This document shows, in pieces, positions 21,790-42,279 of a stretch of DNA of 64,000 nucleotides. This DNA is from Dehalococcoidia bacterium (GTDB lineage: Bacteria; Chloroflexota; Dehalococcoidia; Dehalococcoidales; Fen-1064), in the NCBI GenBank assembly GCA_011170375.1, contig DUEV01000006.1, positions 89,255 to 153,254 on the forward strand. The letters are read 5' to 3'. The translations under genes were made by a program, and so were the position numbers. Position 1 is the first letter of the stretch. Every line of letters begins with the position of its first letter. Below the pieces are notes generated by a model, which searched no databases, was not told where the DNA came from, and saw only the letters and a list, made by a program, of their open reading frames with translations.

Positions 21790-21831
21790 ACTCTCAGTGT
21801 CAACCGGGGTTGTCACCTACGTAGCAATTCT

Positions 21832-23295: not shown

Positions 23296-23336
23296 TCATG
23301 GTTGATAATCTAATACAGATATTGCTAGAAGGGGTA

Positions 23337-23365
23337 TTGACAAATTAGAAAAGTTGTATTATTAT
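23337..23365 (+). promoter_or_regulatory. Strong sigma70-like promoter of the glutamate synthase operon
   Basis: TTGACA (23337-23342), 17-nt spacer, TATTAT (23360-23365). Followed by palindrome CGGCAA-tcgg-TTGCCG at 23374-23389. Confidence 0.6.
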
Positions 23366-23415
23366 ATGGCATACGGCAATCGGTTGCCGCATTCCGTCCC
23401 GCAGGAGTAACTCGA

Positions 23416-23901
23416 ATGGGTAGGGTCTACATCAAAAAAGAGGTGTGTATTGGCTGTCACCTGTGTGAGCTGTATTGTCAGCTACAACACTCTCGGTCAA
23501 CAGACCTGATTAAGGCTTTCAAAAGGGAGTCGATGCGCCCTTCACCCAGACTGAGGGTGGAGGAAAAGGAAGCGGTATCTTTCTCCGTTCGCTGCCAGCA
23601 TTGTGATGAAGCCCCATGTGTTTACGCCTGCCTCTCTGGCGCCCTCACACGCGATAGTAAAACAGGACTGGTTAAAGTAGATGAGGAGAGGTGCATCGGT
23701 TGCTGGACTTGTCTGTTGGTTTGCCCGATCGGTGCAATAAGTCGGGACACAGCAGAAAAGAAGGTGCTGAAATGCGACCTCTGTCAAGGAGAAGATGTTC
23801 CAGCCTGTGTTGCCAATTGCCCTAATGAGGCATTGATATATGTGGAGGTGCAAGATGAGAGTCATAGCACAGAAGGTAAGGTAATTGCCATGATTCAATG
23901 A
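23416..23901 (+). CDS. 4Fe-4S dicluster ferredoxin-like protein (CooF/HybA-like)
   Basis: 161 aa with CIGCHLCELYC, CQHCDEAPC, CIGCWTCLLVCP and CDLC..C..CP cysteine groups. Confidence 0.8.
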   Translation: MGRVYIKKEVCIGCHLCELYCQLQHSRSTDLIKAFKRESMRPSPRLRVEEKEAVSFSVRCQHCDEAPCVYACLSGALTRDSKTGLVKVDEERCIGCWTCLLVCPIGAISRDTAEKKVLKCDLCQGEDVPACVANCPNEALIYVEVQDESHSTEGKVIAMIQ

Positions 23902-23942
23902 GTATAGGGTCGATTGACTAAATCAAACAAAAGGAGGCTTAT

Positions 23943-24312
23943 CGTGTCATACGATTGGGGACCGCACTATATTATTCCTTCGTCAGTAATAACCACCTAT
24001 TCTGGTAATGTTCGGTTGCGAGAGGAATTTGATGACGACCTATTACGTCAGGAATTGAGTGAGCTGGGATTCTCAAGCCCCATCGCAAGGGTGAGTAATC
24101 CATGGTATTACAGGAAGAAAGACTCAACAACCTGGATCAAGATTGGTGAATCCGACGATATGCGCGAGAACTTTCCGGTTACCTGGGATACGCAGAAGCT
24201 TGAGAATGGGCAATACGAAGTAATGGGACTAATGCACGTCTATTTTAAAGCGAATGGCACGATAAAGGCCATTGCCCGGCAAAATGTGGTGGAGGTCACA
24301 GTCAAGAACTAG
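23943..24312 (+). CDS. Hypothetical protein inside the glutamate synthase operon
   Basis: I prefer the GTG at 23943, 6 nt after AAGGAGG, to the ORF-track start at 23914. No recognisable motif; predicted beta-rich. Confidence 0.4.
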
Positions 24313-24486
24313 ACCTAGAAAACACGACATCATTGTCATAGTTGGCTACAGTGCTGGCAACCATAGCAGTGTGGCGAAGGCTCTTGATAAGAGTAGTGAG
24401 CTCAGCCTTAGGTTCTACGACACCTCTAGCAACGTTACTTTAGGTGTAAGGCTTAGTAGTCCATAGGCGGATTGGGCAGGTAAATA

Positions 24487-25854
24487 ATGACAAAGGCAGA
24501 GAGAGTTAAATACCTGATTATCGGAAACTCCGCTGGAGGTATTGGGGCAGCGGAAGCTATCCGTGAGGTGGACAGGGCCGGGGCAATAGCCATCGTTTCC
24601 AGCGAGCCTTACCACGCCTACTCGCGTCCATTGATATCACAGTATCTAGTCGAAGGGCGCCCTCTGCAGAGAATGATGTTTCGACCGGCTGATTTCTACA
24701 AAGAGAAAAATATTCAGGCTATTCTGGGCCAGGAAGTAACGGGTCTTAATATAGACAAACATAACGTTAAGCTCGACGACGGTAGAAGCATAATCTGGGA
24801 GAAGCTGTTGCTGGCTACTGGTAGTTCACCCATTGTACCTAATATAGAAGGTATTGGTCTGAAAGGAGTCTTCACCTTCACCACGCGTGATGATGCCAGG
24901 GCAATCTATAAGTTCCTGAACCAATATCATACAGAGGTAAGGGCTGTGGTCATTGGCGGTGGTCTCATCGGGATAAGTGCTACTGAGGCACTGGTGAAGA
25001 GAGGGGTTAAAGTCACTATCGTCGAGATGAAGGAACGAATTTTGAACACCATCCTCGACGAAGAAGCATCATTTCTCGTGGAGGCATCTTTGAATGAGCT
25101 GGGGGTTGAAATCATCAACGGTCATATCGTGAGTAGGATTACTAGCTTCTTACCTGGTAGGGCTACTGGTATAGCCCTTGATAACGACCGACCGATACCC
25201 TGCGAGATGGTGATCGTAGCTGTCGGTGTGCAGCCACGCACCAAGATAGTTTCAGAAACCGGGATAAGGATAGACCGTGGTATATTAGTTGACCACCATA
25301 TGGCCACATCCAGCCCTGACGTCTATGCCTGCGGGGACGTAGCCGAGGCCTACGACTTTATCTACGACGAGAACCGGCTTACCCCAATCTGGCCTAATGC
25401 CTACATAGGGGGCAGAATCGCCGGCTTCAACATGGCTGGGCTGCCGACTGAATATCAGGGCGGAACATCAATGAATGCTATGAAATATTTTGGACTGGCT
25501 ATTGTTTCAGCGGGCATATTGACTCCACCTGATGACAGCTACGAGGTAATTAGTGAGAAACATGGTCATGTCTATAAAAAGGTTGTTCTTAAAAACGGAC
25601 TAATAGTGGGCGTGATTTTTAGCGGCGACATTGAGAAATCGGGCATTATATACAATCTCATGAAAAACAGAGTAAACGTCGATACCTTTAAGCAAGCTCT
25701 CATCGCTGACGATTTCGGCCTTATCTCTCTCCCTGAGGAAATCTGGCGACCACTGCTGGAACATACTTCGCCAGTAACACCTTCCCTGGCAACCTCAGAT
25801 AAGCAGCCTGAAAAGATGGCTATTGGAGATTTGGGATTGGTGTCTGGGAGGTAA
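24487..25854 (+). CDS. FAD/NAD(P)-dependent pyridine nucleotide-disulfide-type oxidoreductase (probable electron-input subunit)
   Basis: 455 aa. Two Rossmann dinucleotide motifs (YLIIGNSAGGIGAAEA; AVVIGGGLIGISA) and ACGDVA. Confidence 0.8.
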   Translation: MTKAERVKYLIIGNSAGGIGAAEAIREVDRAGAIAIVSSEPYHAYSRPLISQYLVEGRPLQRMMFRPADFYKEKNIQAILGQEVTGLNIDKHNVKLDDGRSIIWEKLLLATGSSPIVPNIEGIGLKGVFTFTTRDDARAIYKFLNQYHTEVRAVVIGGGLIGISATEALVKRGVKVTIVEMKERILNTILDEEASFLVEASLNELGVEIINGHIVSRITSFLPGRATGIALDNDRPIPCEMVIVAVGVQPRTKIVSETGIRIDRGILVDHHMATSSPDVYACGDVAEAYDFIYDENRLTPIWPNAYIGGRIAGFNMAGLPTEYQGGTSMNAMKYFGLAIVSAGILTPPDDSYEVISEKHGHVYKKVVLKNGLIVGVIFSGDIEKSGIIYNLMKNRVNVDTFKQALIADDFGLISLPEEIWRPLLEHTSPVTPSLATSDKQPEKMAIGDLGLVSGR

Positions 25855-25859
25855 CGATT

Positions 25860-26996
25860 ATGAAAGATATTAAACACGTGAACAACCCTTACAACGATGA
25901 TAAGGTCATTGATGCCTGCTCCATATTCGGGGCCATGGATGCCTCAGGCAAGAGGTTTTCTGGAGACGGTGTTATCAGGGCAATTGTCAACATGCATGAC
26001 CGTGGTAACGGGCTGGGTGGGGGATTCGCTATCTATGGTCTATATCCCGATTATGCTGACCTCTACGCCCTTCACGTAATGTACCTTAGCCCTGAGGGTA
26101 AGCAAGAGACAGAGGCTTTGCTAAAGGCAAACTTCAACATCATTGAAAAAGAAGAGGTGCCCACAAGGCAAACACCAATGATTGCCAATCCACCATTGGT
26201 GTGGCGCTACTTCCTTGAGGTGGATCACCGTAAGCCTGAACAAGAATCTGAGGATGACTACGTTGTGGACAGGGTGATGACCATAAATACCGGATTGCGC
26301 GATAGCTTCGTCTTCTCCAGTGGTAAGGATATGGCTGTGTTCAAGGGTGTTGGTTATCCTGAGGAGATAGCTGATTACTTCTGCCTGGAGCAATATGAGG
26401 GCTACCTTTGGACAGCACATGGCCGTTTCCCTACCAATACCCCGGGCTGGTGGGGCGGGGCCCACCCGTTTTGTATCCTAGACTGGACAGTTGTTCATAA
26501 TGGTGAAATTTCTTCATATGGAATAAACCAGCGTTACCTGGGGCAATTCGGTTATCACTGCACGATGCAGACTGATACTGAGGTGGTAGCATACGCTGTT
26601 GACCTGCTGATGCGCAAGCATAACCTGCCGATAGAGATAGTGGCCAAGATACTGGCACCACCTTTTTGGAGTGACATTGAGCGCATGTCGCCAGAAGAAC
26701 AGAAGCTCATGCTGACTCTGCGGCAGGTGTATGCCAGTCTACTCTTAAACGGTCCGTTCACAGTAATCATTGCTCATCATGGTGAGATGATCGGACTGAC
26801 CGACCGCATAAGGTTACGGCCACTCACGGTTGGAGAAAAGGGTAGCATGCTCTACCTTTCATCAGAAGAGTCGGCCATTCGTCTTATATGCCCTGAGCTG
26901 GATAAGACCTGGATTCCTGTGGGCGGTGAACCCGTCGTGGGTACGTTGCGGGCACCGACCCAGCCACAACCCGTGGCTGCCGGGGAGAAGGTATGA
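25860..26996 (+). CDS. Glutamate synthase glutamine-amidotransferase (class II) domain protein, archaeal-type split GltS
   Basis: 378 aa. CSIFGAMD Ntn-Cys after a leader, HGRFPTNT and VHNGEISSYG motifs. Confidence 0.8.
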   Translation: MKDIKHVNNPYNDDKVIDACSIFGAMDASGKRFSGDGVIRAIVNMHDRGNGLGGGFAIYGLYPDYADLYALHVMYLSPEGKQETEALLKANFNIIEKEEVPTRQTPMIANPPLVWRYFLEVDHRKPEQESEDDYVVDRVMTINTGLRDSFVFSSGKDMAVFKGVGYPEEIADYFCLEQYEGYLWTAHGRFPTNTPGWWGGAHPFCILDWTVVHNGEISSYGINQRYLGQFGYHCTMQTDTEVVAYAVDLLMRKHNLPIEIVAKILAPPFWSDIERMSPEEQKLMLTLRQVYASLLLNGPFTVIIAHHGEMIGLTDRIRLRPLTVGEKGSMLYLSSEESAIRLICPELDKTWIPVGGEPVVGTLRAPTQPQPVAAGEKV

Positions 26997-26997
26997 A

Positions 26998-27108
26998 ATG
27001 CTGACGAAAAGAGTTATTCCCTGCCTTGATGTGAGAAACGGTCGAGTTGTAAATAATGCTGGCGGAGAGGAAGAAGTGTTAAAACGGGGAATCTCAATAA
27101 GGGTCTAG
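26998..27108 (+). pseudogene. 36-codon ORF whose first 18 residues are a HisF N-terminus (gene relic or coupled leader ORF)
   Basis: MLTKRVIPCLDVRNGRVV versus the HisF consensus [20 protein letters not shown]. Resemblance stops after residue 18. The ATG is 1 nt after the upstream TGA. Confidence 0.55.
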
Positions 27109-27119
27109 GAGAAAAGGCA

Positions 27120-28625
27120 GTGAAGACCTATCTGACACCCAAATTTCTAGTACAACGAGACCCTGAACGCTGTATCCAGTGTCAGGTATGTGTCAATCAG
27201 TGCACTTTCGACACTCACTACTATGATGTCGAAGACGATGAGGTGAGAAGTCATGATGAGAACTGCATTGGCTGTCTCCGCTGTGTTCTCTTCTGCCCAA
27301 CCCGAGCGCTAACTATCAGACAAAACCACCTCGACTACAGAGACAACTACAATTGGCGCCCCGAGGTGATTGAAGATATCGTTAAGCAGGCGGAAACTGG
27401 CGGGGTACTCCTCACGGGCATGGGCAATGATAAAGGCCAGCGCATCTACTGGGACCATCTGGTTCTCAACGCCAGTCAGGTAACCAACCCGTCTATTGAC
27501 CCACTACGCGAGCCAATGGAGCTCACCACATATCTGGGGCGAAAACCTGATCGGATAGAACTCGACTCGGAATCGTCCACTTTGAAGACAGAATTAGCTC
27601 CTCAGGTAAGTCTGGAAGTCCCGGTAATGTTTGCTGCCATGTCTTATGGTGCGGTCAGTCTTAACGTACATGAATCTCTGGCTAGAGCTGCCACCGAGAT
27701 GGGCACTCTTTGGAACACTGGTGAGGGAGGGCTCCACTCCAAGTTATATAAGTATGGAAACAATACTATTGTCCAAGTAGCTTCAGGGCGCTTCGGTGTC
27801 CATGCTGAATATCTGGACGTAGCTAGAGTAATCGAAATCAAGATTGGGCAAGGAGCAAAGCCTGGAATTGGTGGACACCTCCCAGGGGAGAAGGTGAGCA
27901 GCGAGGTATCGCTAACGCGGATGATTCCCCAAGGAACTGATGCACTGTCACCGGCTCCACAGCACGATATTTACTCAATTGAAGACCTGGCACAGCTTAT
28001 CTACGCTTTAAAAGAGGCAACAAACTACAGCAAGCCGATATCGGTTAAAATCGCCGCTGTTCATAACTCGGCTGCTATTGCCAGTGGCATGGTGAGAGCC
28101 GGCGCCGACATTATTGTTCTAGATGGACTAAGGGGGTCTACAGGCGCTGCTCCCAAGATTATCCGCGACAATGTTGGCATTCCCATTGAGATGGCCTTGG
28201 CCTCGGTAGATAGCCGACTGAGGCAGGAGGGAATACGCAACCAGGCCTCTGTCGTCGTCTCAGGAGGCATAAGGAATAGCGGTGACGTGGCTAAGGCAAT
28301 CGCCCTCGGTGCTGATGCCGTCTATATCGGGACAGCAGCTCTCATTGCCCTAGGCTGTCATGTCTGCCAGCAGTGTCATACAGGGAAATGCGCTTGGGGC
28401 ATTTGCACCACTGACCTTCGCCTGACTAAGAGGGTTAACCCAGACATTGGTGCCCGCAGACTGACCAACCTGCTTCGAGGTTGGAGCATTGAACTCAAGG
28501 ACATACTGGGTGGGCTTGGAGTTAACGCTCTAGAGAGTTTGAGGGGGAATCGCCTGCATTTAAGAGGCGTTGGGTTGACTGATACCGAGCTCGATATCTT
28601 GGGAGTAAGGATGGCGGGGAGCTGA
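27120..28625 (+). CDS. Glutamate synthase FMN/synthase domain with N-terminal 2x[4Fe-4S] ferredoxin domain
   Basis: 501 aa. CIQCQVCVNQC / CIGCLRCVLFCP, then IEIKIGQGAKPGIGGHLPGEKV and GGTGAAP-like motifs typical of GltB domain 2. Confidence 0.9.
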   Translation: MKTYLTPKFLVQRDPERCIQCQVCVNQCTFDTHYYDVEDDEVRSHDENCIGCLRCVLFCPTRALTIRQNHLDYRDNYNWRPEVIEDIVKQAETGGVLLTGMGNDKGQRIYWDHLVLNASQVTNPSIDPLREPMELTTYLGRKPDRIELDSESSTLKTELAPQVSLEVPVMFAAMSYGAVSLNVHESLARAATEMGTLWNTGEGGLHSKLYKYGNNTIVQVASGRFGVHAEYLDVARVIEIKIGQGAKPGIGGHLPGEKVSSEVSLTRMIPQGTDALSPAPQHDIYSIEDLAQLIYALKEATNYSKPISVKIAAVHNSAAIASGMVRAGADIIVLDGLRGSTGAAPKIIRDNVGIPIEMALASVDSRLRQEGIRNQASVVVSGGIRNSGDVAKAIALGADAVYIGTAALIALGCHVCQQCHTGKCAWGICTTDLRLTKRVNPDIGARRLTNLLRGWSIELKDILGGLGVNALESLRGNRLHLRGVGLTDTELDILGVRMAGS

Positions 28626-28627
28626 AA

Positions 28628-29386
28628 ATGGGGAGATGGAGAAACTCGACAGCGAAAATAGATGCTGCCGGAATTTACTATCGAGAACTCAATGCCAAGC
28701 TGAGAGGCGTTGTCTCGAATGGCACCAAAAAAATAGAGCTCCACAATATCCATGGGCAGCGGTATATCGGCACCGACCTGGATAAGCCGGTGGAGCTCGA
28801 GATATTTGGAACTCCTGGTAATGACTTGGGAGCGTTTATGAACGGACCAAGGATTATTGTGCATGGCAATGCCCAAGATGGCTGCGGTAACACGATGGAT
28901 AGCGGTGAGATAATCATACATGGTCACGCTGGAGATATCGTTGGGCTATCGGCCAGAGGCGGGAAAATTTTTGTCCGAGACGATGTCGGCTACCGGGCAG
29001 GTATCCATATGAAGGAGTACCAGGACAAGAAGCCCGTGCTCGTCATCGGCGGAACCGCACAGGACTTTCTTGGCGAATACATGGCCGGAGGCATCTTAAT
29101 TCTGCTGGGTCTGAATCTAGCCGAAGGTGAACATCATAAATCCAGATTTATTGGTACCGGAATGCATGGCGGCGTCATCTACCTGAGGGGAAATGTCGAG
29201 AATTACCAGCTTGGTAAAGAAGTCGGTGTTACCGACCTGGATGAAGAGGAGCGCCACATCCTGAAGCAGTATGTTGATGAGTTTGCCGAACACTTTAACT
29301 ACCAACCAGATGAAATACTGGATCAGGAGTTCCTCGAGCTCTACCCTCGCTGGCTCCGACCCTATGGAAGGCTCTACGCATATTGA
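28628..29386 (+). CDS. Glutamate synthase GXGXG (alpha-subunit C-terminal) domain protein
   Basis: 252 aa. Repeated G-x-G beta-helix motifs (HGNAQDGCGNTMDSGEIIIHGHAGDIVG..GGKIFVRDDVGYRAG). Confidence 0.85.
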   Translation: MGRWRNSTAKIDAAGIYYRELNAKLRGVVSNGTKKIELHNIHGQRYIGTDLDKPVELEIFGTPGNDLGAFMNGPRIIVHGNAQDGCGNTMDSGEIIIHGHAGDIVGLSARGGKIFVRDDVGYRAGIHMKEYQDKKPVLVIGGTAQDFLGEYMAGGILILLGLNLAEGEHHKSRFIGTGMHGGVIYLRGNVENYQLGKEVGVTDLDEEERHILKQYVDEFAEHFNYQPDEILDQEFLELYPRWLRPYGRLYAY

Positions 29387-29403
29387 TTGAGCGGAGATAG
29401 GCA

Positions 29404-30084
29404 ATGCCAAACCTGCTAATAATGGCTCAAGAAAGCATGGAACTAACAGGGCTGATTTCGGGACTCATCCGAAGTGGCTTTGCTTGCTCTATTGTTCGTC
29501 ATGGTAATGGATTATTAGAGCAGATTGCGGCTCAGTCTCCGGATTTAATCCTAGCGGAAATGGATGGGCATCTGGCCAATTCCAGAATACAGGAACTGGT
29601 TAAGAGCATGAAACAGAAAAAGCGTACACCAGTTATGGCTCTGGTTCCGGGAGAGATGCTGGATAGCATTGATGGACAGCTTAACATTGCCGATGATTTT
29701 CTCGCCAGTCCTTACGATGACAGGGAACTGGTGTTGAGAATAAAACGACTTCTAAATCATAAGGCCGAGGGCGCGGCCAGCACTGAGCTAATAAAAAGTG
29801 ATGGTCTTGTAATAGACCTCGCTAAGTGCGGGGTAACTGTGGGAAGTAAGGTGGTACAGCTGACCTTTAAAGAATATGAGTTACTCAAATTCCTGGCAAG
29901 CAACAGAGGGCGCGTCTATACTCGTGAAGCCCTGCTCAATAAGGTCTGGGGCTATGATTACTACGGCGGTGACCGGACGGTAGATGTCCATGTAAGGAGA
30001 CTTAGAAGCAAGATTGAGGACTCGAAACATACATACATTGAGACGGTAAGAAACATTGGCTACAGGTTCATAAAGGAGGCATAG
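29404..30084 (+). CDS. OmpR/PhoB-family transcription regulator with a degenerate (pseudo-)receiver domain
   Basis: Canonical winged-helix C-terminus (LTFKEYELLKFL..RTVDVHVRRLRSKIE..TVRNIGYRF). The receiver lacks the acidic pair (LLIMAQES), the phospho-Asp (DLILAEMDG), the Thr (PVMALVP) and the Lys (DDFLASPY). Confidence 0.8.
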   Translation: MPNLLIMAQESMELTGLISGLIRSGFACSIVRHGNGLLEQIAAQSPDLILAEMDGHLANSRIQELVKSMKQKKRTPVMALVPGEMLDSIDGQLNIADDFLASPYDDRELVLRIKRLLNHKAEGAASTELIKSDGLVIDLAKCGVTVGSKVVQLTFKEYELLKFLASNRGRVYTREALLNKVWGYDYYGGDRTVDVHVRRLRSKIEDSKHTYIETVRNIGYRFIKEA

Positions 30085-30088
30085 GTCT

Positions 30089-31612
30089 GTGTGTGGCATT
30101 GTTGCCATATTCGGTCATAATTCCCAGCTTGGGGTACCACACTTGGATACCATGCTAAATCGGCTATCCCATCGAGGACCGGATGACAGAGGCACCTTTG
30201 CTAATGGACACATTACTTTGGGCCAAACCAGACTTTCCATAGTGGATGTCGCTGGAGGCAGGCAGCCAATATTCTCTGAAGATGGGGAGAAATGTGTTAT
30301 CTGCAACGGCGAGATATATAACCATCTGGACCTGAGAAAAGCGCTTCACCAGGAACACTGTTTTCGAACCAACTCAGACACTGAGGCAATTCTTCACCTC
30401 TTCGAGGAAGAGGGAACTCAATCGGTCTTGAAGCTAGATGGGATGTTTGCTTTCGTAGTTTATGACGGCAAAGATATTCTAGTTGCCAGAGACCCTTTAG
30501 GGATAAAGCCCCTCTATTACAGTCAGGAGAATAGCTGCCTCCTCTTCGCCTCTGAGATTAAGGCGTTGCAGGGAATTGCGGGTAATATTCAGGAATTCCC
30601 CGCCGGTTATTACTACTCCCCCAGCCAAGGACTGACCCAGTACTACCGCCTGCCAGTAATCCCTGAGTGGCAGAGTAATGTCAGTGAAATAAGTCAGAAG
30701 CTACACGATAAGCTGTATGGAGCCGTGGAAAAACGCTGGATGTCTGATGTCCCTGTAGGTTGCTTTCTCAGCGGTGGCCTTGATAGCAGTCTTATCTGTG
30801 CGGTATCAAAACGTAACTTCGACCACCTCGACACGTTCTCCGTTGGTCTGGAGACAGAATCACAGGATTTGATATATGCCAGGAAGGTCGCTCAGTTTCT
30901 GGGTACAAATCACCACGAATATGTCTACACTATGAGTGACGTCCTTGAGGCGCTACCTGATGTTATCTACCACCTGGAGTCCTTTGACCCGGCGCTGGTA
31001 AGAAGCGCTATCCCCTGTTACTTTGTTTCTCGATTGGCCAGAGAGTATGTAAAGGTTATCCTCACTGGGGAAGGGTCGGATGAGGTATTTGCCGGGTATC
31101 ACTACTTTAAGCGGTTTAGTGATAAGCAAGATGTGTACCAAGAGTCTGTCAGGATTCTTACCGGGCTGCACAACATGAACTTACAGAGGGTTGACCGGGC
31201 CACCATGGCCCATTCGATAGAAGGGAGAGTACCCTTTCTTGATATTGGCTTCGTCGAATATGCCATGTCCATCGACCCGAGACTCAAACTAGCAGGGAAG
31301 AGTAAACGGATCGAAAAGTGGCTGCTAAGACAGGCTTTCACCCGTTACCTTCCTGACGAGATAATCTGGAGACCGAAGATGGAGTTTGCCGCTGGCTGTG
31401 GCTCTGAAGAGTTGATAACTGACATGGTTGAGGATGAAATCTCAGATGCTGAATTCGAACGGGAAAGGCAACGGCTACAGGAAATTAACATTTCCTCTAA
31501 AGAAGATCTGTACTATTTTCGGATATTCTATGATTTCTTCGGCTCTGACATTGATGCCACTGCCATCGGCAGATGGAAAGGCGGTTTTTCTAGAGAAGGT
31601 TCAGATTTATAG
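30089..31612 (+). CDS. asnB: Asparagine synthase (glutamine-hydrolysing)
   Basis: 507 aa. (M)CGIVAIFG Ntn-Cys, SGGLDSS PP-loop. Confidence 0.9.
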   Translation: MCGIVAIFGHNSQLGVPHLDTMLNRLSHRGPDDRGTFANGHITLGQTRLSIVDVAGGRQPIFSEDGEKCVICNGEIYNHLDLRKALHQEHCFRTNSDTEAILHLFEEEGTQSVLKLDGMFAFVVYDGKDILVARDPLGIKPLYYSQENSCLLFASEIKALQGIAGNIQEFPAGYYYSPSQGLTQYYRLPVIPEWQSNVSEISQKLHDKLYGAVEKRWMSDVPVGCFLSGGLDSSLICAVSKRNFDHLDTFSVGLETESQDLIYARKVAQFLGTNHHEYVYTMSDVLEALPDVIYHLESFDPALVRSAIPCYFVSRLAREYVKVILTGEGSDEVFAGYHYFKRFSDKQDVYQESVRILTGLHNMNLQRVDRATMAHSIEGRVPFLDIGFVEYAMSIDPRLKLAGKSKRIEKWLLRQAFTRYLPDEIIWRPKMEFAAGCGSEELITDMVEDEISDAEFERERQRLQEINISSKEDLYYFRIFYDFFGSDIDATAIGRWKGGFSREGSDL

Positions 31613-31710
31613 CTAGGCTGATGCATCAATCCCATGTAACACAGATTTAACATCCCGGAAATATTTCGGAAACAATAACGGGCTAGGCTGAAAGAAAAAG
31701 GAGGTTATTG

Positions 31711-33281
<1,571 letters not shown>

Positions 33282-33370
33282 GCAAGTTGCAGGGGTAAAC
33301 ATGCAGATAAGAAATTGATGATGAACAGTAATATTCCGACCAAACGAATAATCGCGAATTGGAGGCAATA

Positions 33371-34714
33371 ATGATTAACAGAAGCAGAGAAGAAGCTAAG
33401 GATTACGTTCTAAAGATGGCTGAGGAGCATGATGTTAAGTTTATCAGGCTGTGGTTCACCGATATCCTGGGTATGCTCAAGAGTTTTGCCATCACGGTGG
33501 AGGAACTGGAAGGGGCTTTAGAGGAGGGAATGGGTTTTGATGGTTCGTCAATAGAAGGGTTTGCCCGCATCGATGAAAGCGATATGGTAGCTCTGCCTGA
33601 CCCCGACACCTTTCAGTTGCTACCCTGGCAACCCCGCGAACACCGCGCGGTAGCCCGAATGTTCTGCGATATCTTGAAGCCCGGCGGTGAACCTTTTGAA
33701 GGTGACCCCAGATATGTCTTGAAAAAGAATTTGAAGCGGACAGCTGATTTAGGCTGCACCTTCTATGTGGGGCCAGAACTGGAATACTTCTATTTCCAGA
33801 ACTCGGGGGGGACTGAGCCATTAGACCAGGGAGGCTATTTCGACCTGACTCCGCGTGATGCAGCCACCGATATGAGGAAGGAAACAGTGCTAGCACTGGA
33901 AGAGTTGGGTATTGGCGTCGAATATTCCCACCATGAGGTTGCTACCAGCCAGCATGAAATAGACATGAGGTACACTGATGCCCTGACTATGGCCGATAAT
34001 GTGATGACATACCGCTTAGTGGTCAAAGAAGTAGCCTTGAAGTACGGCGTCTATGCTACTTTTATGCCCAAGCCGGTTTTCGGCATAAACGGCAGCGGTA
34101 TGCACGTACACCAGTCACTTTTCAAAGGAGAAAGTAATGCTTTCTTCGACAAGAATGACGAATATCACCTATCCCAGATGGCCAGGTACTATATAGCCGG
34201 CCTACTCAAACATGCTCCTGAACTTACTGCTGTGACCAATCAGTGGATTAACTCTTACAAACGTCTGGTTCCCGGCTACGAGGCACCGGTTTATCTCTCC
34301 TGGGCACGGCGTAACCGTTCTGATTTAGTCCGAGTCCCGGAGTACCGGCCTGGAAGGGAAAAGGCGACCCGCGTTGAGTTCAGGTCTCCTGACCCCGCCT
34401 GCAATCCTTACTTGGCTTTCAGTGTGATGCTGGCCGCCGGACTGGAAGGTATCGAAAAGGAATATGACGTACCCGAGCCAATCGAAGAAAATGTATATGA
34501 GATGACTGAAGACGAGAGGCGGAAGAGAGGAATAGGTACCTTACCTGCCAGCCTGTTGGAAGCCATACTACTAACAGAGAAAAGCGTGCTGGTGCGAAAG
34601 GCTCTAGGTGAGCATGTTTTCTCAGCTTTCATCCAGAACAAGAAAATAGAGTGGGACCACTACCGAACCCAGGTGACCGAATATGAGCTTAAGAGATACT
34701 TACCAATACTGTGA
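33371..34714 (+). CDS. glnA: Glutamine synthetase type I
   Basis: FTDILG, GFDGSSIEGF, GSGMHVHQS, NSYKRLVPGYEAP and the RVE.R motif series. ATG at 33371 after GGAGG. Confidence 0.92.
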   Translation: MINRSREEAKDYVLKMAEEHDVKFIRLWFTDILGMLKSFAITVEELEGALEEGMGFDGSSIEGFARIDESDMVALPDPDTFQLLPWQPREHRAVARMFCDILKPGGEPFEGDPRYVLKKNLKRTADLGCTFYVGPELEYFYFQNSGGTEPLDQGGYFDLTPRDAATDMRKETVLALEELGIGVEYSHHEVATSQHEIDMRYTDALTMADNVMTYRLVVKEVALKYGVYATFMPKPVFGINGSGMHVHQSLFKGESNAFFDKNDEYHLSQMARYYIAGLLKHAPELTAVTNQWINSYKRLVPGYEAPVYLSWARRNRSDLVRVPEYRPGREKATRVEFRSPDPACNPYLAFSVMLAAGLEGIEKEYDVPEPIEENVYEMTEDERRKRGIGTLPASLLEAILLTEKSVLVRKALGEHVFSAFIQNKKIEWDHYRTQVTEYELKRYLPIL

Positions 34715-34730
34715 GTAATGAGAGGTTGCT

Positions 34731-36488
34731 ATGTCGCAGTGGGCTAACACGCGTCGGTTGCGAATTGGGATGGCGCAAATCAATACTACCGTGGGTGATT
34801 TTGCCGGCAACAGGCAAAAAATACTAAAAGCTATGGACGAAGCCAGGACTTTGCACATAGACCTGCTTGCGTTCCCTGAACTCGCTATCTGCGGTTATCC
34901 ACCTGAGGACCTCCTGTTCAAGCCACGCTTTATTGCCGAGAATCTGCGGTCGTTAGATAAGGTAGTCGAAGCCTCCCCAGGACTTACTATCGTGGTTGGC
35001 TTTGTCGACGCTAAAGAAGACATCTACAATGCTGCAGCTATAATCCACGATGGCAAGCTAGCTGGCATCTATCACAAGATATACCTGCCCAATTATGGTG
35101 TCTTTGACGAGAATCGCTACTTCCGAGCGGGGAGCAAATGCCCTGTCTATGGCATCGCTGGCATTAGTGTCGGCGTCAGCATCTGCGAAGATATCTGGTA
35201 CGAGGCGGGGCCAGCTACCACCCAGGCTTACTCTGGGGCCGAGGTTATAGTCAACATAAGTGCCTCACCATACCACTTCGGTAAGGGAAGCTTTAGGGAA
35301 AGAATGGTAGCGACACGTGCTGCAGACAACGTGGCCGCTTTTGCCCTCTGCAACCTAGTAGGTGGGCAAGATGAGCTAGTTTTCGACGGAAATAGCATTG
35401 TACTGGATGAGAAAGGACAGTTGATAGCCAGAGGCAAACAGTTCGAGGAAGACCTAATAGTAGCTGACCTTGATGTCGAATCCGTCTTTCGGGCGCGCCT
35501 CCATGATTCTAGATGGAAGAAAGAGCTACTCCTCCACGAAGAGCAAGGATGGCGTAGTGCCCCCAAAATAGTGATATCCGAAGCGCCATTTAACACTGAA
35601 AAACCGTCGCTACCGCCCAGACAAGTTGAGGTGCAGGGCTTTCCGGGCGAGGTCTATGATGCTTTGGTGCTGGGAACTCGTGACTATATCCTCAAGAATG
35701 ATTTTGAGAAAGTGCTGATAGGTCTTTCCGGAGGAATAGACTCCAGCGTGGTAGCCGCTATCGCCGTTTATGCCTTAGGGAGCGTAAACGTGGTCGGGGT
35801 GGCCATGCCTTCAAGATACTCTTCTCCCGGCAGCGTATCAGATGCTGAACTTTTGGCTAAGAATCTGGGCATAAGGCTAATGACTATTCCTATTGAGAAA
35901 GTGTTTCAGGCATATCTGGATACACTGGCCGAGCATTTTAAAGGCACAGAGCCTAATGTGGCTGAAGAGAATATTCAAGCTAGAATCAGGGGCAATATCC
36001 TGATGGCACTATCAAACAAGTTTGGTTGGCTGGTTCTTACAACGGGTAACAAAAGCGAAATGGCTACGGGCTATACCACCTTATACGGAGACATGGCCGG
36101 TGGTTTTGCCGTGATAAAAGATGTACCGAAGACAATGGCTTACGAATTAGCCAGGTACCGAAACTCGCTGGCTGAGTCAGAACTAATACCACGTACAATC
36201 ATAGATAAGCCTCCGTCAGCCGAGTTAAGGTCCGACCAAAGGGATATTGACTCCCTACCACCGTACGAGCTACTCGACCCGGTATTAACTGCATATGTTG
36301 AGGAAGACAAAAGTGTCGAACAGATTATTGGTATGGGAGTCGATGAAAAGGCAGTCAAGCGTGCGGCCCGATTGGTAGACAAGAGTGAGTACAAACGCCG
36401 GCAGTCGCCACCAGGCGTGAAGATAACCCCTCGAGCCTTTGGTAGGGACAGAAGGTTGCCTATCACCAACAGATTCGAGGGATGGTGA
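34731..36488 (+). CDS. nadE: Glutamine-dependent NAD+ synthetase (CN-hydrolase plus synthetase domains)
   Basis: 585 aa. N-terminal nitrilase-like domain (FPELAICGYPPEDL, CEDIW) and GLSGGIDSS PP-loop domain. Confidence 0.9.
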   Translation: MSQWANTRRLRIGMAQINTTVGDFAGNRQKILKAMDEARTLHIDLLAFPELAICGYPPEDLLFKPRFIAENLRSLDKVVEASPGLTIVVGFVDAKEDIYNAAAIIHDGKLAGIYHKIYLPNYGVFDENRYFRAGSKCPVYGIAGISVGVSICEDIWYEAGPATTQAYSGAEVIVNISASPYHFGKGSFRERMVATRAADNVAAFALCNLVGGQDELVFDGNSIVLDEKGQLIARGKQFEEDLIVADLDVESVFRARLHDSRWKKELLLHEEQGWRSAPKIVISEAPFNTEKPSLPPRQVEVQGFPGEVYDALVLGTRDYILKNDFEKVLIGLSGGIDSSVVAAIAVYALGSVNVVGVAMPSRYSSPGSVSDAELLAKNLGIRLMTIPIEKVFQAYLDTLAEHFKGTEPNVAEENIQARIRGNILMALSNKFGWLVLTTGNKSEMATGYTTLYGDMAGGFAVIKDVPKTMAYELARYRNSLAESELIPRTIIDKPPSAELRSDQRDIDSLPPYELLDPVLTAYVEEDKSVEQIIGMGVDEKAVKRAARLVDKSEYKRRQSPPGVKITPRAFGRDRRLPITNRFEGW

Positions 36489-36549
36489 CAAATTGGCCAC
36501 GGAATAGGTAGCTTAGAATGGAGAAAATAACAGGGTCGCGAAGACAAAT

Positions 36550-37644
36550 ATGAGTAAAAAGGCATTTTTAGCCTTAGAAGATGGCTCGGTCCATCACGGA
36601 TTCACCTTTGGTGCGGAGGTTGATACCTTCGGCGAGGTAGTATTCTGCACTGCCATGACTGGTTACCAGGAGATGCTGACTGACCCCTCCTATGCTGGGC
36701 AGATTCTGGTTCCCACTTATCCCCTTATCGGCAACTACGGTATCAATGAGCAGGATATTGAGTCGGCCAAAATACAGGTCAGGGGGTTTGTTGTTAGAGA
36801 GGTGTGTCTTGAGCCCAGCCACTATCTGAGTCAGAAGACAATTCACCAGCATCTGGCCGAAAGTGGCATCCCCGGAATCCATGGGGTGGATACCCGCGCA
36901 ATAACTCGCCGACTTCGCTCGAGTGGTGTGATGATGGGCATGATAACCAGCAGCAAGTCTCCGCAACAGGCTCTGGAAGAATTAAAGAAAGTGCCCAGCT
37001 ATGGCTCCATCGATTTCGTCAAGCAGGTGACTACTCCAACCTCCTATCAGTGGCAGCCGGAGGACTCGGCGCCACTATACAACATAGTTGTGCTGGACTG
37101 TGGTCTGAAATATAACATCCTTCGCATCCTGAACCGCCTGGAGTGTAGCGTCACCGTTGTGCCCTGTACTATGTCTGCTGGAGAAATCCTCTCTCTAGAG
37201 CCAGATGGTATTCTCCTCTCGCCGGGCCCCGGCGACCCCGACATACCGAAGGTAAACTACGTCATTGACACCGTCAAGCAGCTCGTCGGTAAAAAGCCGA
37301 TAATAGGCATCTGCTTCGGCCAACAGCTCATTCACCGTGCCTTCGGTGGCTGCCATTTCAAGCTCAAGTTTGGCCACCGCGGTGGTAATCACCCTGTCCG
37401 TGAACTGGCTACCGGCAGAATCCATATCACGGCGCAAAATCATGGTTACGCCGTTGACCCAGATACTCTCGGAGAAGACCTGGAAATCACTCACATAAAC
37501 ATGAATGACAATACAGTAGAAGGCCTAAAGCACAGGGAGTTACCCATATTCGCCATCCAGTATCACTCCGAGGCTTCACCAGGTCCCTGGGACAATACCT
37601 ATCTCTTCGACAAATTTATTGAGATGGTAAAGGAGGCGAAATGA
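36550..37644 (+). CDS. carA: Carbamoyl-phosphate synthase small (glutaminase) subunit
   Basis: 364 aa. GICFGQQL triad Cys, [10 protein letters not shown]. Confidence 0.92.
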
Positions 37645-37660
37645 ATGTAGGAGTTATTGT

Positions 37661-40600
37661 TTGAAGCCCTCTAAGGTCTTAATAATCGGTTCTGGGCCTA
37701 TCATCATCGGACAGGCAGCGGAGTTTGACTATGCTGGTACTCAGGCGTGCCGGGCAATGCGTGAAGAAGGCATTACCTCAGTGCTGGTGAACTCAAATCC
37801 CGCCACCATCATGACTGACGAGGACATTGCCGACATCGTCTATATTGAGCCGCTGACCGTGGATGTACTGGCCCGCATCATTGAGCGAGAGCGTCCCGAT
37901 GGATTGTTACCTACGCTGGGCGGACAGACTGGCCTTAACCTGGCTGTAGCCTTAGCTGACACTGGTATTCTTAACAAATACAATGTCAGAAGTCTAGGGA
38001 CACCAATTCAAACGATAAGAAACGCCGAGGACCGTGAGCTGTTCAAGCGGATGCTGATTGATATCGGTGAGCCGGTACCGGCGAGCGCCGCCGTGAACAG
38101 TTTAGGAGCGGCCAGGGAGGTTGCCAGTAATATTGGCCTACCCTTGATAATCCGTCCGGCTTACACTCTGGGTGGAACCGGCGGAGGCATGGCTTGCAGC
38201 TGGGAGGAACTGGAGATAGCCGTTAGTAGAGGATTGGCAGCCAGCCCCATACATCAGGTGCTGCTTGAGGAATCCGTAGCAGGCTGGAAAGAGATTGAGT
38301 ATGAGGTGATGCGGGACAGTGCTGACAACTGCATCACCGTCTGCAATATGGAGAACCTTGACCCGATGGGAGTTCATACCGGCGATAGCATAGTCGTTGC
38401 TCCCAGCCAGACGCTGAACAACAAGGAATACCAGATGCTGCGAACGTCGAGCCTTAAGATTATCCGGGCGCTGGGCATCGAAGGTGGCTGTAATGTCCAG
38501 TTCGCCCTTGACCCCAAGAGCGAAAAATATTATGTGATTGAGGTCAATCCCCGGGTAAGCCGTAGCTCAGCCCTGGCCAGCAAGGCCACTGGTTACCCTA
38601 TTGCCCGTGTTGCGGCTAAAATAGCCGTGGGTAAGAGACTGGATCAAATCCCAAACCAGGTAACGGGAAAAACAATGGCCTCCTTTGAGCCGGCGCTCGA
38701 TTATGTGGTGGTCAAGATTCCCCGATGGACTTTTGATAAATTTACCTCCAGTGACCGCTCTATTGGCACCCAGATGAAAGCCACCGGCGAAGTAATGGCC
38801 ATTGACCGCTGTTTCGAAGCTGCTCTGCAGAAGGCAGTACGTTCTCTGGAATTCGGCAGGAGAACGCTCCTTTGGGAAGACCCCAAGTGGAAATCATCAA
38901 CCGATATCAATTCCTATCCCCTACAGCCCAACGAACTGAGACTGTGGGCCATAATGGCTGCCTTAAGAAGGGGAATAAGTGTGCAGGCAATAAGCGAGCA
39001 CACCACGATTGACCGGTGGTTTATAGATAGGATGCAAAATATTGTCGGTATGGAGAAACAATTCCTAACTCAGCCACTAACCCCCGAATTCTTGTGGCAG
39101 ATAAAGCGGCTCGGCTTTTCTGACGAGCAAATAGGAGTCCTATTAGGTGAACCTTACGAGCATATAAGACTGTTACGTCGTATTTGGAATATTCAACCTG
39201 TCTATAAGATTGTTGATACCTGCGCCGCCGAATTTGATGCTGCCACGCCGTACTACTATAGCGCCTACGAGCAGGAGGATGAGGCACAGCCTGATAAGAG
39301 GAAGAAAGCCATAGTCATCGGCAGTGGGCCTATTCGCATTGGCCAAGGAATAGAGTTCGATTATTGTTGTGTCCATGCCGCGTTTGCCCTGCGGGACGAG
39401 GGGTATGAGACGATAATGATTAACTGTAACCCGGAAACAGTCTCCACCGACTTTGACACCTCGGATAAGCTATATTTCGAACCGGTGACGGTTGAAGACG
39501 TTTTGAGTATCTACGAAGAGGAGAACCCCGTCGGCGTAATCGTTCAATTTGGCGGTCAGACACCACTTAATATCGCGGCGGAACTTGAGAAAGCTGGCGT
39601 TTCCATACTGGGCACATCGGTCAACTCGATAGACATTGCCTCTGACCGGGGCCGGTTCAGCCAGATAATGAAGAAATGCAGCATCCCCATGCCAGAATCG
39701 GGTACTGCTAGTAGCCTTAAAGAGGCCCTGGTTTTAGCGGAGCGCATCGGCTACCCACTTATAGTTCGCCCGTCATACGTCCTTGGCGGACGCGGTATGG
39801 AGATAGTACATGACGAAGAAGAACTAATAAGGTATGTGAGTGCAGCCGTCGTGGTAACGCCCGACCGGCCGATCTTGATTGATAAGTTTCTGGAGAATGC
39901 TATCGAGGCCGAGGCGGATGCCATTTCCGACGGGAATGATACTTTTGTGCCGGCAGTCATGGAGCATATCGAATTTGCTGGTGTCCATTCCGGCGATTCA
40001 GCCTGTGTGATTCCGTCCGCAAGCATACCAGCTAAGCATCTCACCACAATTCATGATTACACGAAGAGAATCGCCCGCAAACTTCATGTTGTCGGCCTGA
40101 TGAATGTCCAATATGCTATAGCTAAAGACGTTGTGTATGTTCTGGAGGCCAATCCCCGGGCATCACGCACCGTACCCATCGTCTCTAAGGTGTGTGATAT
40201 TCCCATGGTACATCTGGCAACTCAGGTTATGCTGGGCAGGAAGCTAGCTGAGCTTGACCTCAAGTCACGAAGGATTCCCTACTTCGGAGTTAAAGAGGCA
40301 GTTTTTCCGTTTCACATGTTTCCCGAAGTCGACCCGCTGCTCAGACCGGAGATGAAGTCCACGGGCGAAGTTCTGGGGATGGCCGATTCCTTTGGTCTGG
40401 CATTCTGGAAAGCGCAGGAGGCAGTTTCAATTCTCCCGACTGAGGGCACTGTGCTTATCACTGTCTCGGAACGTGACCGGCAAGCAGCAGGCAAGGTAGC
40501 CAGTCAGTTTGCTGACCTGGGGTTCAAGATTAAGGCTACGGCTGGCACCCATGCTTTTCTAACTAGCCTGGGCATAGCCTCAGAACCGATACTGAAGGAG

Positions 40601-40861
40601 CATGAGGGTAGGCCTAATATCACGGATGCCATAAGCAACAGGGAAGTTCAGCTAGTAATAAACACGCCGGCGGGGAAACTAAGTGCACATGATGACTCGT
40701 ACATCCGAAAGGCTGCTATAAAGTACAAGGTGCCATATATCACCACGCTAGCAGCCGCCATGGCAGCCTCCAAGGGAATAATAGCTTACCGTGAGGGTAA
40801 ATCAGATGTCAGGTCGCTGCAAAGTTACCACGACGACGTGAAGGAAATGCAAGAGAGCTGA
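37661..40861 (+). CDS. carB: Carbamoyl-phosphate synthase large subunit
   Basis: 1066 aa. Duplicated ATP-grasp halves ([17 protein letters not shown] / [17 protein letters not shown]) and an MGS-like tail. TTG start. Confidence 0.95.
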
Positions 40862-40945
40862 TCCTCCCCTCCGAATATTATCAGATACATTGATTGAGGC
40901 AGTAGGTGGAATTCGACGTGCTACTCACAACTTTCGTAACAGGCA

Positions 40946-40954
40946 TGCTATAAT
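40946..40954 (+). promoter_or_regulatory. Extended -10 promoter box TGCTATAAT upstream of nrpR
   Basis: GCATGCTATAAT at 40943-40954, 38 nt before the TTG start of nrpR. Confidence 0.5.
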
Positions 40955-40991: not shown

Positions 40992-41987
40992 TTGGTACAA
41001 GGTTCTAGCTCCGAAACAGAGATAAAGATAATAGCCATTCTTAAGGTCTTGAGTGAGTCCTCTGAGCCACTCGGGTCAATTACTATTGCCCGTAAACTGG
41101 AGCAGGAGGGAGTTTTCCTGAGTGAGAGAGCAATCAGATATCACCTGAGAATAACAGATGAGCGTGGTTTTACCCAGCCGGGCGGTCGGGATGGCAGAAT
41201 GATTACTCCAGAAGGGCGGCAAGAGGTTAAGGACGCACTGGCACCGGAGCAGCTTGGTTTTGTGCGTGATAAGCTCGAGATGTTAGCTTTCCAAACCACA
41301 TTCGACCCACAAAAGAGAACCGGCCTGTTATCTGTAAACACCTCCTTAATTGACAAGAATAATTTCAAAAAGGCATTATCAGCCATGAGGGATGCATTCA
41401 AGGCCGGAATTTGTGTCAGCGACTTAGTGGCCACCGCGTCTGAAGGAGAAAGGCTTGGTTCGGTAATCGTGCCCAGTGGGAAAATCGGCCTGGCTACCGT
41501 CTGCAGCGTGGTGATATATGGGGTACTTCTGAAGGCAGGTGTGCCTACAGAATACAGGTTTGGAGGATTGCTCGAGGTTAGAAATTCAAAACCACGGCGC
41601 TTTGTAGCCATAATTGACTATCAGGGTACATCCCTCGACCCCTCTGAACAATTCATACGTGGCAACATGACGAGCGTTAATGAAGTTGCAAGGACAGGGA
41701 ATGGTAAGGTATTAGGTGTGTTCCGTACTCTGCCAGCACCGGCGAAAGAAATCGTCGAGGAGAAAATCGCTTTGCTCAAGGAAGCCGGCATCGGTGGGGT
41801 CTATGCTCTGGGCAATACCAGCGAGTCGATTTGTCGTGTTCCAGTGACTTTAAATCGGTTTGGTATCGTTCAACTCGGTGGTCTTAATCCAGTGGCGGCA
41901 GCCGTTGAGGCGGGAATCGAGATAGAAAACATAGCTGAGAGCGGGCTAATTGATTTTCAGCAGCTTCAACCTGTTTGGCAGATTTAG
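40992..41987 (+). CDS. nrpR: NrpR-like nitrogen repressor (winged HTH plus one NrpR/DUF128 domain)
   Basis: 331 aa. N-terminus IKIIAILKVL..SEPLGSITIARKLEQEGVFLSERAIRYHLRITDERGF..GRMITPEG resembles methanogen NrpR as I remember it. Single-domain length. Confidence 0.7.
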   Translation: MVQGSSSETEIKIIAILKVLSESSEPLGSITIARKLEQEGVFLSERAIRYHLRITDERGFTQPGGRDGRMITPEGRQEVKDALAPEQLGFVRDKLEMLAFQTTFDPQKRTGLLSVNTSLIDKNNFKKALSAMRDAFKAGICVSDLVATASEGERLGSVIVPSGKIGLATVCSVVIYGVLLKAGVPTEYRFGGLLEVRNSKPRRFVAIIDYQGTSLDPSEQFIRGNMTSVNEVARTGNGKVLGVFRTLPAPAKEIVEEKIALLKEAGIGGVYALGNTSESICRVPVTLNRFGIVQLGGLNPVAAAVEAGIEIENIAESGLIDFQQLQPVWQI

Positions 41988-42279
41988 CCCGAATATCCTG
42001 TCCTATCATGGATTTCGCTCTATTAGAAAGCGACCGAGCTTTATGCGGTAGAATTGCTCGGTTCCCGACGTTACTTCCATCGCCCTTCGCGACTGAAGAA
42101 AAAGTGTGAAATACTCGTGCTCAGTCTGCTTTCGGCAACGGTGATTCCCTAGGAAATGGAGAAGCTTCTTGGAAGGAGACCGACGGCCATGCTTTACTTG
42201 GGAAATGTACGACTTACTGAATTTGCTTAACTCGGCGATTTACGTTACGCTTAAGGAGTTAAGCAACCGTAGCGGGTGT

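Follow-up and report, generated by a model that had tools for sequence, protein, structure and literature searches.

We analysed a 64-kb stretch of DNA from a Dehalococcoidia bacterium (contig DUEV01000006.1; 64,000 nucleotides, hereafter the window), in which a cluster of nitrogen-assimilation genes ends in nrpR, a gene for a homologue of NrpR, the textbook nitrogen repressor of methanogens. Our subject is this protein and the site at which it may act, a 28-bp palindrome at the promoter heading the cluster that is, on its sequence, likely an NrpR operator. The features of the locus, in window coordinates, are as follows (NRD, NrpR regulatory domain; ORF, open reading frame; aa, amino acids).

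23337..23365, plus strand: sigma-70-type promoter (TTGACA at 23337-23342, 17 nt, TATTAT at 23360-23365)
23368..23395, strand-less: candidate NrpR operator, the 28-bp palindrome GGCATACGGCAATCGGTTGCCGCATTCC, with its core at 23374-23389
23416..31612, plus strand: genes behind the operator-bearing promoter, from the 4Fe-4S protein gene to asparagine synthase (Pfam, NCBIfam)
start 23416, plus strand: 4Fe-4S protein gene, first gene of the nitrogen cluster (Pfam)
after the 4Fe-4S gene, plus strand: ORF of 122 aa, part of the nitrogen cluster
start 24487, plus strand: pyridine-nucleotide oxidoreductase gene (Pfam)
25860, 27120 and 28628, plus strand: split archaeal-type glutamate synthase (GATase_2, hisF remnant, Fer4 plus Glu_synthase, GXGXG; Pfam, NCBIfam)
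29404..30084, plus strand: gene for an OmpR-family (GlnR-like) regulator with a degenerate receiver (Pfam)
after the OmpR-like gene, plus strand: asparagine synthase gene, asnB (Pfam)
31636..31673, plus strand: GlnR-type element GTAAC-N6-TTAAC-N6-GAAAT-N6-GAAAC of the amt promoter, followed by the -10 hexamer TAGGCT at 31684-31689
31708..40861, plus strand: distal cluster of amt, P-II, glnA, nadE, carA and carB, stopping right before nrpR (Pfam)
31708, 32943-33281 and 33359, plus strand: start of amt, the P-II gene and start of glnA, respectively (Pfam, ORF list)
40920..40936, plus strand: conserved box spanning the -35 region of the nrpR promoter; the sequence here, GCTACTCACAACTTTCG, has 2 nt inserted into the consensus GCTATTYAGYTTTYG
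40946..40954, plus strand: extended -10 element of the nrpR promoter, TGCTATAAT
40992..41987, plus strand: nrpR, the last cluster gene (331 aa, TTG start)
41031..41225, plus strand: winged helix-turn-helix of NrpR, residues 14-78 (PF08461)
41253..41969, plus strand: NRD, residues 88-326 (PF01995; 3NEK alignment)
41988..42023, plus strand: start of a conserved non-coding element, GTCGAATATCCGATCCTATTATGG..., directly 3' of the nrpR stop codon

A purF-like gene on the minus strand precedes the plus-strand nitrogen genes in gene order (Pfam). Strand and spacing suggest that the genes from 23416 to asnB form one operon, and an orthologous gene order lies behind an operator of its own at one related locus (L037). 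The related loci that we compared, 17 from species-representative genomes and 71 from metagenomes, are all Dehalococcoidia-type, with 61-92% protein identity. In over 30 of these loci, nrpR is located downstream of glnA, nadE, carAB, glutamate synthase genes (gltS) or pdxT, and its linkage to glutamine/glutamate metabolism is therefore conserved. Farther afield, nrpR and gdhA form an apparent operon in Syntrophales, and nrpR is paired with glnA in Methanoperedens (two loci).

An earlier, preliminary description of this DNA had called the 331-aa protein NrpR-like, with a winged helix-turn-helix and a single further domain, and had proposed a profile search against the NrpR (DUF128) family as a check. 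The profiles bore this out: Pfam HTH_12 (PF08461) matched residues 14-78 (E 5.7e-18, 65 bits against a cut-off of 21.4), and NRD1_2 (PF01995) matched residues 88-326 over the full model length (E 1.8e-78), with a single NRD. The window protein is a bona fide short-form member of the NrpR family (COG1693), consisting of one winged helix-turn-helix and one NRD. It is 100% identical to an NCBI protein named DUF128 from a Dehalococcoidia bacterium and is matched by no NCBIfam model; its only solved relative is PDB entry 3NEK, the regulatory domain of Methanocaldococcus jannaschii NrpR (MJ0159; E 4e-23). When 11 bacterial and archaeal homologues were aligned, R46, R49, D56, G68, R69 and T72 were invariant and Y50 and H51 nearly so; the T-x-C-S motif of the NRD (T169, C171) was invariant as well. 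The helix ERAIRYHL and the wing GRMIT are likely the DNA-reading parts, and the patterns ERAxRYHL and GRxIT are kept in Methanobacteriales, Methanoperedens, Syntrophales and Dehalococcoidia. Because helix and wing are essentially invariant, the DNA half-site should be similar across the family. The single NRD is presumed to be the 2-oxoglutarate sensor.

Homologues outside Euryarchaeota had been described as sparse, and this claim has to be given up: more than 5000 database proteins match the window NrpR at E<1e-10, there are large clades in Syntrophales/Syntrophobacterales, and Planctomycetota have a homologue. The best 120 matches are all Dehalococcoidia-type, at no less than 79% identity. 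A full-library search gave 731 cluster representatives at E values up to 1e-3, and family representatives are mostly ~330 aa long with one NRD, a few having 540-580 aa and two NRDs. Among the nearest relatives outside Dehalococcoidia, whose groups were assigned from the names attached to cluster members, identity to the window NrpR was 47% for Syntrophobacterales, 45% for a Planctomycetota homologue, 37% for Methanoperedens/Methanosarcinales and 31-33% for the two-NRD forms of Methanosphaera/Methanobrevibacter. The hundreds of homologues with at least 80% identity indicate that the nrpR protein is under strong purifying selection. Two NrpR homologues per genome have been recorded in Dehalococcoides, with lateral transfer from methanogens proposed as their origin (Gao and Gupta, 2007; PMC1852104), and NrpR has also been noted in 'certain Bacteria' (PMC2723118).

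The archaeal operator is GGAA-N6-TTCC (PMC2723118). This sequence was absent from every spacer of the window, in agreement with the preliminary description, which had not seen it in the spacers inspected. Three copies are present within coding sequence (against 1.2 expected by chance), and the sole one-mismatch copy in the spacers, at 42135 downstream of nrpR, is a stray match that does not lie at a promoter. The absence of the canonical operator holds clade-wide: at 77 non-redundant related loci, 53 kb of intergenic sequence contained one copy, where 1.2 were expected. For Methanosarcina the operator consensus is ACC-N7-GGT. Neither this motif nor GGAA-N6-TTCC was enriched at promoters of the window or of the related loci, and both were rejected as operators here. 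A general count of gapped palindromes (half-sites of 4-5 nt, gaps of 0-12 nt, 307 intergenic regions) returned AT-rich matches alone, the best of which, ACAA-N9-TTGT, is part of the conserved element 3' of nrpR; because the count required a half-site in at least six regions, it missed the GGCA-N6-TGCC site described below. 'GAATATT' motifs flanking the window nrpR were set aside as uninformative, being common to very close relatives alone.

In Syntrophales, the sequence upstream of nrpR reads TTGACA-N17-TAGAGA-ccat-CGGCAA-ATGA-TTGCCG-ATTGCC-g-ATG; the core, GGCA-N6-TGCC, is laid out exactly like the archaeal GGAA-N6-TTCC (PMC2723118). The window holds a match to this core, CGGCAATCGGTTGCCG at 23374-23389 (CGGCAA-N4-TTGCCG), within the 28-bp palindrome at 23368-23395. 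When up to one mismatch is allowed, CGGCAA-N4-TTGCCG has two matches in the window, where 0.14 would be expected. Two nucleotides separate the -10 element from the palindrome, a further 20 lie between its end and the 4Fe-4S start codon (ATG), and the TTGACA-N17-TATTAT promoter at 23337-23365 is the best promoter-like match between 23000 and 42500 (11/12). The preliminary description had anticipated a diverged operator in the case that NrpR regulates the cluster, and a GGCA-N6-TGCC core in a 28-bp palindrome at the cluster-head promoter, recurrent in NrpR-bearing loci, answers to that expectation; the site lies in none of the spacers listed there (upstream of gltS, amt, glnA, carA and nrpR) and outside the coordinates that were considered.

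Six sites, one each from the window, L028, L031 and L014 and two from Syntrophales, served to build a position weight matrix (PWM) of 28 nt, with which 822 kb were scanned. The window operator scored 36-38 bits, and sites not used for training were recovered at L039, L049, L006, L040 and L037/L062 with 24-30 bits, while five shuffles of the 822 kb gave no match of 18 bits or more (maximum 16.8). The palindrome is found at ~10 independent Dehalococcoidia loci and at nrpR-gdhA in Syntrophales, on near-consensus promoters. Every site abuts or overlaps the -10 element in the architecture TTGACA-N17-TAnnnT, and the -35 element is a perfect TTGACA in all tabulated sites but L014 (TTGAAA). The operator consensus is GGCATACGGCAA-N4-TTGCCGTATGCC, in which CGG/CCG is invariant and the next position is Y/R. 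The genes behind the sites are these.

L031 and L039: a GltS-like gene, then nrpR
L014: a GltS-like gene, pdxT, then nrpR
L049 and L006: a gene for a PPDK_N protein, a GltS-like gene, then nrpR
L037: the orthologous cluster, fer4 ... gltS ... glnA, then nrpR
L028, L033 and L040 (opposite strand): a divergent nrpR paralogue

Three more contigs then provided a prospective test. One of the loci, L100, has the order PPDK_N, GltS-like, nrpR, and the site was present there as predicted: it reads GGTATACGGTAGACGGTTGCCGTATACC at 5041-5068, 27 nt before the first gene, scored 27.4 bits with the original PWM and was the sole match of at least 12 bits in five new loci.

Two other matches in the window were noted. 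A second exact copy of the core, CGGCAAGAGATTGCCG at 14580-14595, lies within a Peripla_BP_6 gene (the periplasmic amino-acid-binding component of an amino-acid ABC transporter); an exact 12-base core is expected ~0.004 times per window, and the flanks of this copy misfit the 28-bp model (12-14 bits). The PWM match at 48292 (18-19 bits) lies within a minus-strand ORF with one half matched and was treated as chance.

The gene most often found between palindrome and nrpR encodes a GltS-like protein of 530-560 aa, which matches Glu_synthase (FMN domain) weakly and is rich in Cys at its N-terminus (MNLQRPN...CTRC..C.GNC), and is often preceded by the gene for a PPDK_N-domain protein. No NCBIfam model matches it. 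Its positions are L031 874-2499, L014 2476-4068, L039 2257-3846, L049 3284-4948, L006 3448-5127 and L100 7769-9451, and both families also occur near nrpR in Syntrophales. In a more distant, GC-rich clade of Chloroflexota (L016, L065-L071), another inverted repeat, TTGGCTGYGG-N5-7-CYRCAGCCAA, is found upstream of nrpR, between a TAGAGT -10 element and the Shine-Dalgarno sequence of the gene.

In our reading, the NrpR of the window acts through the 28-bp palindrome, to which we assign a probability of about 0.6. Several points weigh against it. The candidate operator lies 17.6 kb upstream of the window nrpR, and the 174-nt gap before 24487 could hold a further promoter. Two Methanoperedens loci have no clear comparable palindrome (GGNA-N6-TNCC) within 300 nt upstream of glnA, so that continuity with the closest single-NRD archaeal relatives would be conjectural. 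Finally, the protein that binds the palindrome could be a paralogue encoded elsewhere in the genome.

This last point rests on the presence in Dehalococcoidia of two NrpR paralogue types, A and B, which are ~56% identical to each other. The window NrpR belongs to type A; its promoter lacks the palindrome and bears another conserved box, whereas the type-B genes (L028, L033, L040) have the palindrome on their own promoters, as does Syntrophales nrpR; for this reason the binder could be type B. The palindrome would then be an NrpR-family operator read by type B, with type A serving other targets or acting only together with type B, an alternative that we consider unlikely but the one that survives best. 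It draws further on the two homologues per Dehalococcoides genome (PMC1852104) and on the equal closeness of type B to the Syntrophales protein (56%) and to type A (56%), the Syntrophales protein being 47% identical to type A. The residues of the DNA-reading helix and wing, however, are identical in types A and B, so that either or both paralogues may bind the palindrome, and type-A nrpR is the terminal gene of a palindrome-headed operon at seven independent loci, the usual signature of a regulator with its own regulon. The window itself, 64 kb long, contains no type-B gene, which speaks for the window and not for the remaining genome.

A second alternative severs the palindrome from NrpR altogether: it could be the site of another regulator or a 5'-leader RNA hairpin, with nrpR a horizontally acquired passenger. 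In its favour, the link between protein and site is indirect, the transcript would include the palindrome, which could then form an RNA fold, and the Methanoperedens glnA-nrpR loci show no obvious equivalent of it. We nevertheless regard this explanation as improbable. The palindrome co-occurs with nrpR in two bacterial phyla, stands on nrpR promoters in three lineages and resembles the archaeal NrpR operator in the type of half-site and in its spacing. Moreover, its position is fixed relative to the -10 element and not to the start codon, from which it is 1 to ~275 nt away, and the bases at the variable position of the two arms often do not pair (C/A in L031 and L006, A/A in L014) while CGG/CCG stays constant, a pattern that fits protein contacts better than base pairing. 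On these two grounds a protein-binding palindrome is favoured over an RNA hairpin. The passenger idea, for its part, is at odds with the strong purifying selection on nrpR.

The third alternative, that the quasi-palindrome CCGGAAATATTTCGG upstream of amt (31655-31669) is a diverged NrpR operator, has very little left in its favour: although amt-glnK, in whose promoter it lies, is a classic NrpR target and a GGAA...TTC-like motif is included, its CGGAA and TTCGG arms are not reverse complements (the palindromic part being GAAATATTTC only), the orthologous promoters lack the palindromic look (L087, GTTTGTAATATGCTGG; L013, ATCTGTAATCTATTGG; L002, TGTCGTAATAATTTGG), and what is conserved is a four-fold direct repeat of 11-bp phase and GlnR type, found only beside an ompR-like gene.

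The preliminary description had singled out this amt site as the closest approach to an NrpR operator; the amt promoter is now better read as GlnR-type and not NrpR-type, the site falling inside the GlnR-type element. When the amt promoter of the window is aligned with those of L002, L013 and L087, the shared pattern is TGTAACAyAnATTTAACA-N4-GTAAT-N6-GGAAACAAT and then a -10 element. It consists of four 5-bp direct repeats in 11-bp phase. The palindromic look is peculiar to the window because it has GAAAT where the orthologues have GTAAT. The element is kept upstream of amt (L002, L013, L087) and of glnA (L017), always beside an ompR-like gene. A scan for repeat arrays found no other strong one in the window; across 644 kb of loci, arrays occurred solely upstream of amt or glnA, the four strong ones adjoining an ompR-like gene. 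Actinobacterial GlnR elements consist of gTnAc and GaAAC sites six bases apart, with amtB as a classic target (PMC10235972), and the amt element matches this published description.

The neighbouring OmpR-like protein has a clear DNA-binding domain (Trans_reg_C, E 3.2e-29) and a receiver that falls below threshold (Response_reg, 16.8 bits against a cut-off of 30.2). Among its PDB matches, GlnR structures rank second (8HIH) and fourth (8HML), the third, 8HIG, bearing a generic name only. In the receiver the acidic pair is replaced, and a Glu takes the place of the RegX3 phospho-Asp in the alignment. Within the cluster itself, no gene for a histidine kinase was seen. The notion of a hybrid archaeal/bacterial control circuit, put forward in the preliminary description, thereby gains support in cis, from GlnR-type boxes at the amt promoter beside the OmpR-like gene.

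The promoter of nrpR itself is of another kind. That the gene has its own promoter had been proposed before, and the call is strengthened by the conservation of the extended -10 element: TGnTATAAT is kept at an equal distance from the start codon in ~39 orthologous nrpR loci. In 39 nrpR promoters a PWM finds a 15-nt box, GCTATTYAGYTTTYG, which precedes the extended -10 element at a constant spacing; the window has no second copy of it. Two GCTWTT repeats, 8 nt apart, can be made out in the box. We rejected it as an NrpR operator, since it is specific to nrpR promoters, its other PWM matches being inside the nrpR coding sequence or at chance level, and the PWM scan gave no link between the box and other nitrogen promoters. 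Expression of nrpR in methanogens has been reported to be unresponsive to nitrogen (PMC9765008), with which a separate, operator-less nrpR promoter is in keeping.

The non-coding element directly 3' of nrpR is kept in most type-A loci (among them L001, L002, L018, L020, L021, L032, L043, L063, L085 and L088) and extends up to ~180 nt in a dozen; the window holds its first ~36 nt only. The long versions end in an AT-rich inverted repeat, GT(A/G)ACAA..TTGC..TTGT(T/C)AC. The element had no Rfam match and no consistent small ORF, and its consensus fold is weak (-4.3 kcal/mol) and without covariation. A T-arm-like sequence raised a tRNA or tmRNA downstream of nrpR as a candidate, and ARAGORN found none.

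Taken together, these observations lend themselves to the following model. At low 2-oxoglutarate, that is, under nitrogen sufficiency, NrpR would bind the palindrome at 23368-23395 through four GGYA-type half-sites, the inner pair being GGCA-N6-TGCC. Since the palindrome starts 2 nt after the -10 element and covers the predicted transcription start, bound NrpR would occlude the strong promoter at 23337-23365 and block the operon whose leading genes include the ferredoxin-like gene and those for the split glutamate synthase. A rise in 2-oxoglutarate would release NrpR from the DNA, allowing transcription of glutamate synthase, asparagine synthase and the GlnR-like regulator, and this OmpR/GlnR-like regulator would then activate the internal amt-glnB-glnA promoter via the four 11-bp-phased GTAAC-like repeats. 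Two regulators would thus work in series on bacterial promoters, an archaeal-type repressor followed by an actinobacterial-type activator, and the separate, operator-less nrpR promoter would keep the repressor present while the operon is shut. The analysis shows the family membership, the position and conservation of both cis-elements and the conserved linkage; that the window NrpR binds rather than its paralogue, and that the cascade runs in this order, is inferred; 2-oxoglutarate sensing and the direction of regulation are carried over from the family.

In its widest form the model is more tentative, and we would place it somewhat below even odds: an archaeal 2-oxoglutarate-sensing repressor may have been acquired by bacterial neighbours of methanogens (Dehalococcoidia, Syntrophales, Planctomycetota) and put to use on sigma-70 promoters with a re-tuned operator of four half-sites; here it would stand at the top of a two-tier circuit, gating an operon for a GlnR-type activator that in turn would switch on amt-glnB-glnA, and the two diverged paralogues would share or divide the operator.

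Several further observations concern the setting of nrpR. Glutamine-using enzymes gather around the gene in the window (21832-40861: purF-like, glutamate synthase, asnB, nadE, carA), and other nrpR loci add hisH, pdxT, pyrG and purQ-like genes, so that the whole amidotransferase set appears co-localised. The 123-nt spacer between the GATase_2 and Glu_synthase genes (26998-27108, plus strand) encodes MLTKRVIPCLDVRNGRVV..., a HisF N-terminus, and then a stop codon, at a place where orthologous loci have an intact hisF of 255-277 aa (e.g. L099 1381-2148, His_biosynth); the hisF of the window is therefore a gene remnant. The N-terminus of a molybdopterin oxidoreductase can be read in frame 3 at 21190-21600 (plus strand) without a long ORF (CHGGCGVLVHV...GDPDFPTNHGSMCSKG...ISWDEAL); it contains a TGA in frame and soon stops, so that the gene has probably decayed, or else the TGA could be a selenocysteine codon. 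Lastly, two tRNA-like 3' fragments (T-arm plus acceptor strand, e.g. GGTCGTGGGTTCGAATCCCCCCGCTGCCAC) lie at 42298-42327 (plus strand) and ~21756-21800 (minus strand); ARAGORN found no complete tRNA at either, and they could be remnants of integration sites.

To our knowledge, all functional studies of NrpR have been done in Archaea, and we know of no described master regulator of nitrogen control in Dehalococcoidia or Syntrophales. If the palindrome is the bacterial operator of NrpR, a transcription factor crossed the domain boundary and represses bacterial RNA polymerase by the same promoter-occlusion logic, and a testable regulon model is available for Dehalococcoidia and Syntrophales, with relevance to bioremediation and syntrophic methanogenesis. 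The 28-bp sequence makes the function of bacterial NrpR directly testable and permits regulon prediction in thousands of metagenome-assembled genomes.

The NrpR protein is already known, in a known place. The apparent novelty lies in the operator, in the sigma-70 promoter that surrounds it and in the arrangement in series with a GlnR-like activator. In the literature covered, which leaves out most subscription journals, we found no operator, promoter context or regulon for any bacterial NrpR, and NrpR together with Dehalococcoidia or Chloroflexi only in mentions of its presence. Earlier reports (PMC1852104; PMC2723118) likewise note NrpR homologues in bacteria, as presence only; the operator, promoter context, regulon and distinction of paralogues go beyond them.

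Compared with known systems, the neighbouring regulator resembles actinobacterial GlnR in its OmpR-type DNA-binding domain and apparently atypical receiver, and the amt promoter has, as in actinobacteria, four 5-bp sites 6 nt apart upstream of a weak -35 element (PMC10235972). The regulator differs in belonging to Chloroflexota, in lying within a glutamate synthase operon and in a more degenerate receiver, without the N-terminal acidic pair and with Glu at the phospho-Asp position; by sequence it may be called GlnR-like. The NrpR protein shares its Pfam architecture with NrpR of Methanococcus maripaludis (two NRDs) and NrpRI of Methanosarcina mazei (one NRD), the one-NRD form of the window matching the latter. 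Akin to methanogen NrpR, it has the reading helix and wing and is linked to glnA, amt and glutamate synthase genes, although it is 31-39% identical to the archaeal proteins and its sensing of 2-oxoglutarate is presumed from the family. The methanogen operator, like our candidate, has 4-bp inverted half-sites 6 bp apart at the transcription start (PMC2723118). In contrast to the methanogens, the host here is a bacterium and the promoter is of the sigma-70 type (TTGACA/TATTAT) instead of TATA/BRE, and the half-site is GGCA or GGTA rather than GGAA, set within a 28-bp palindrome with an outer pair of half-sites.

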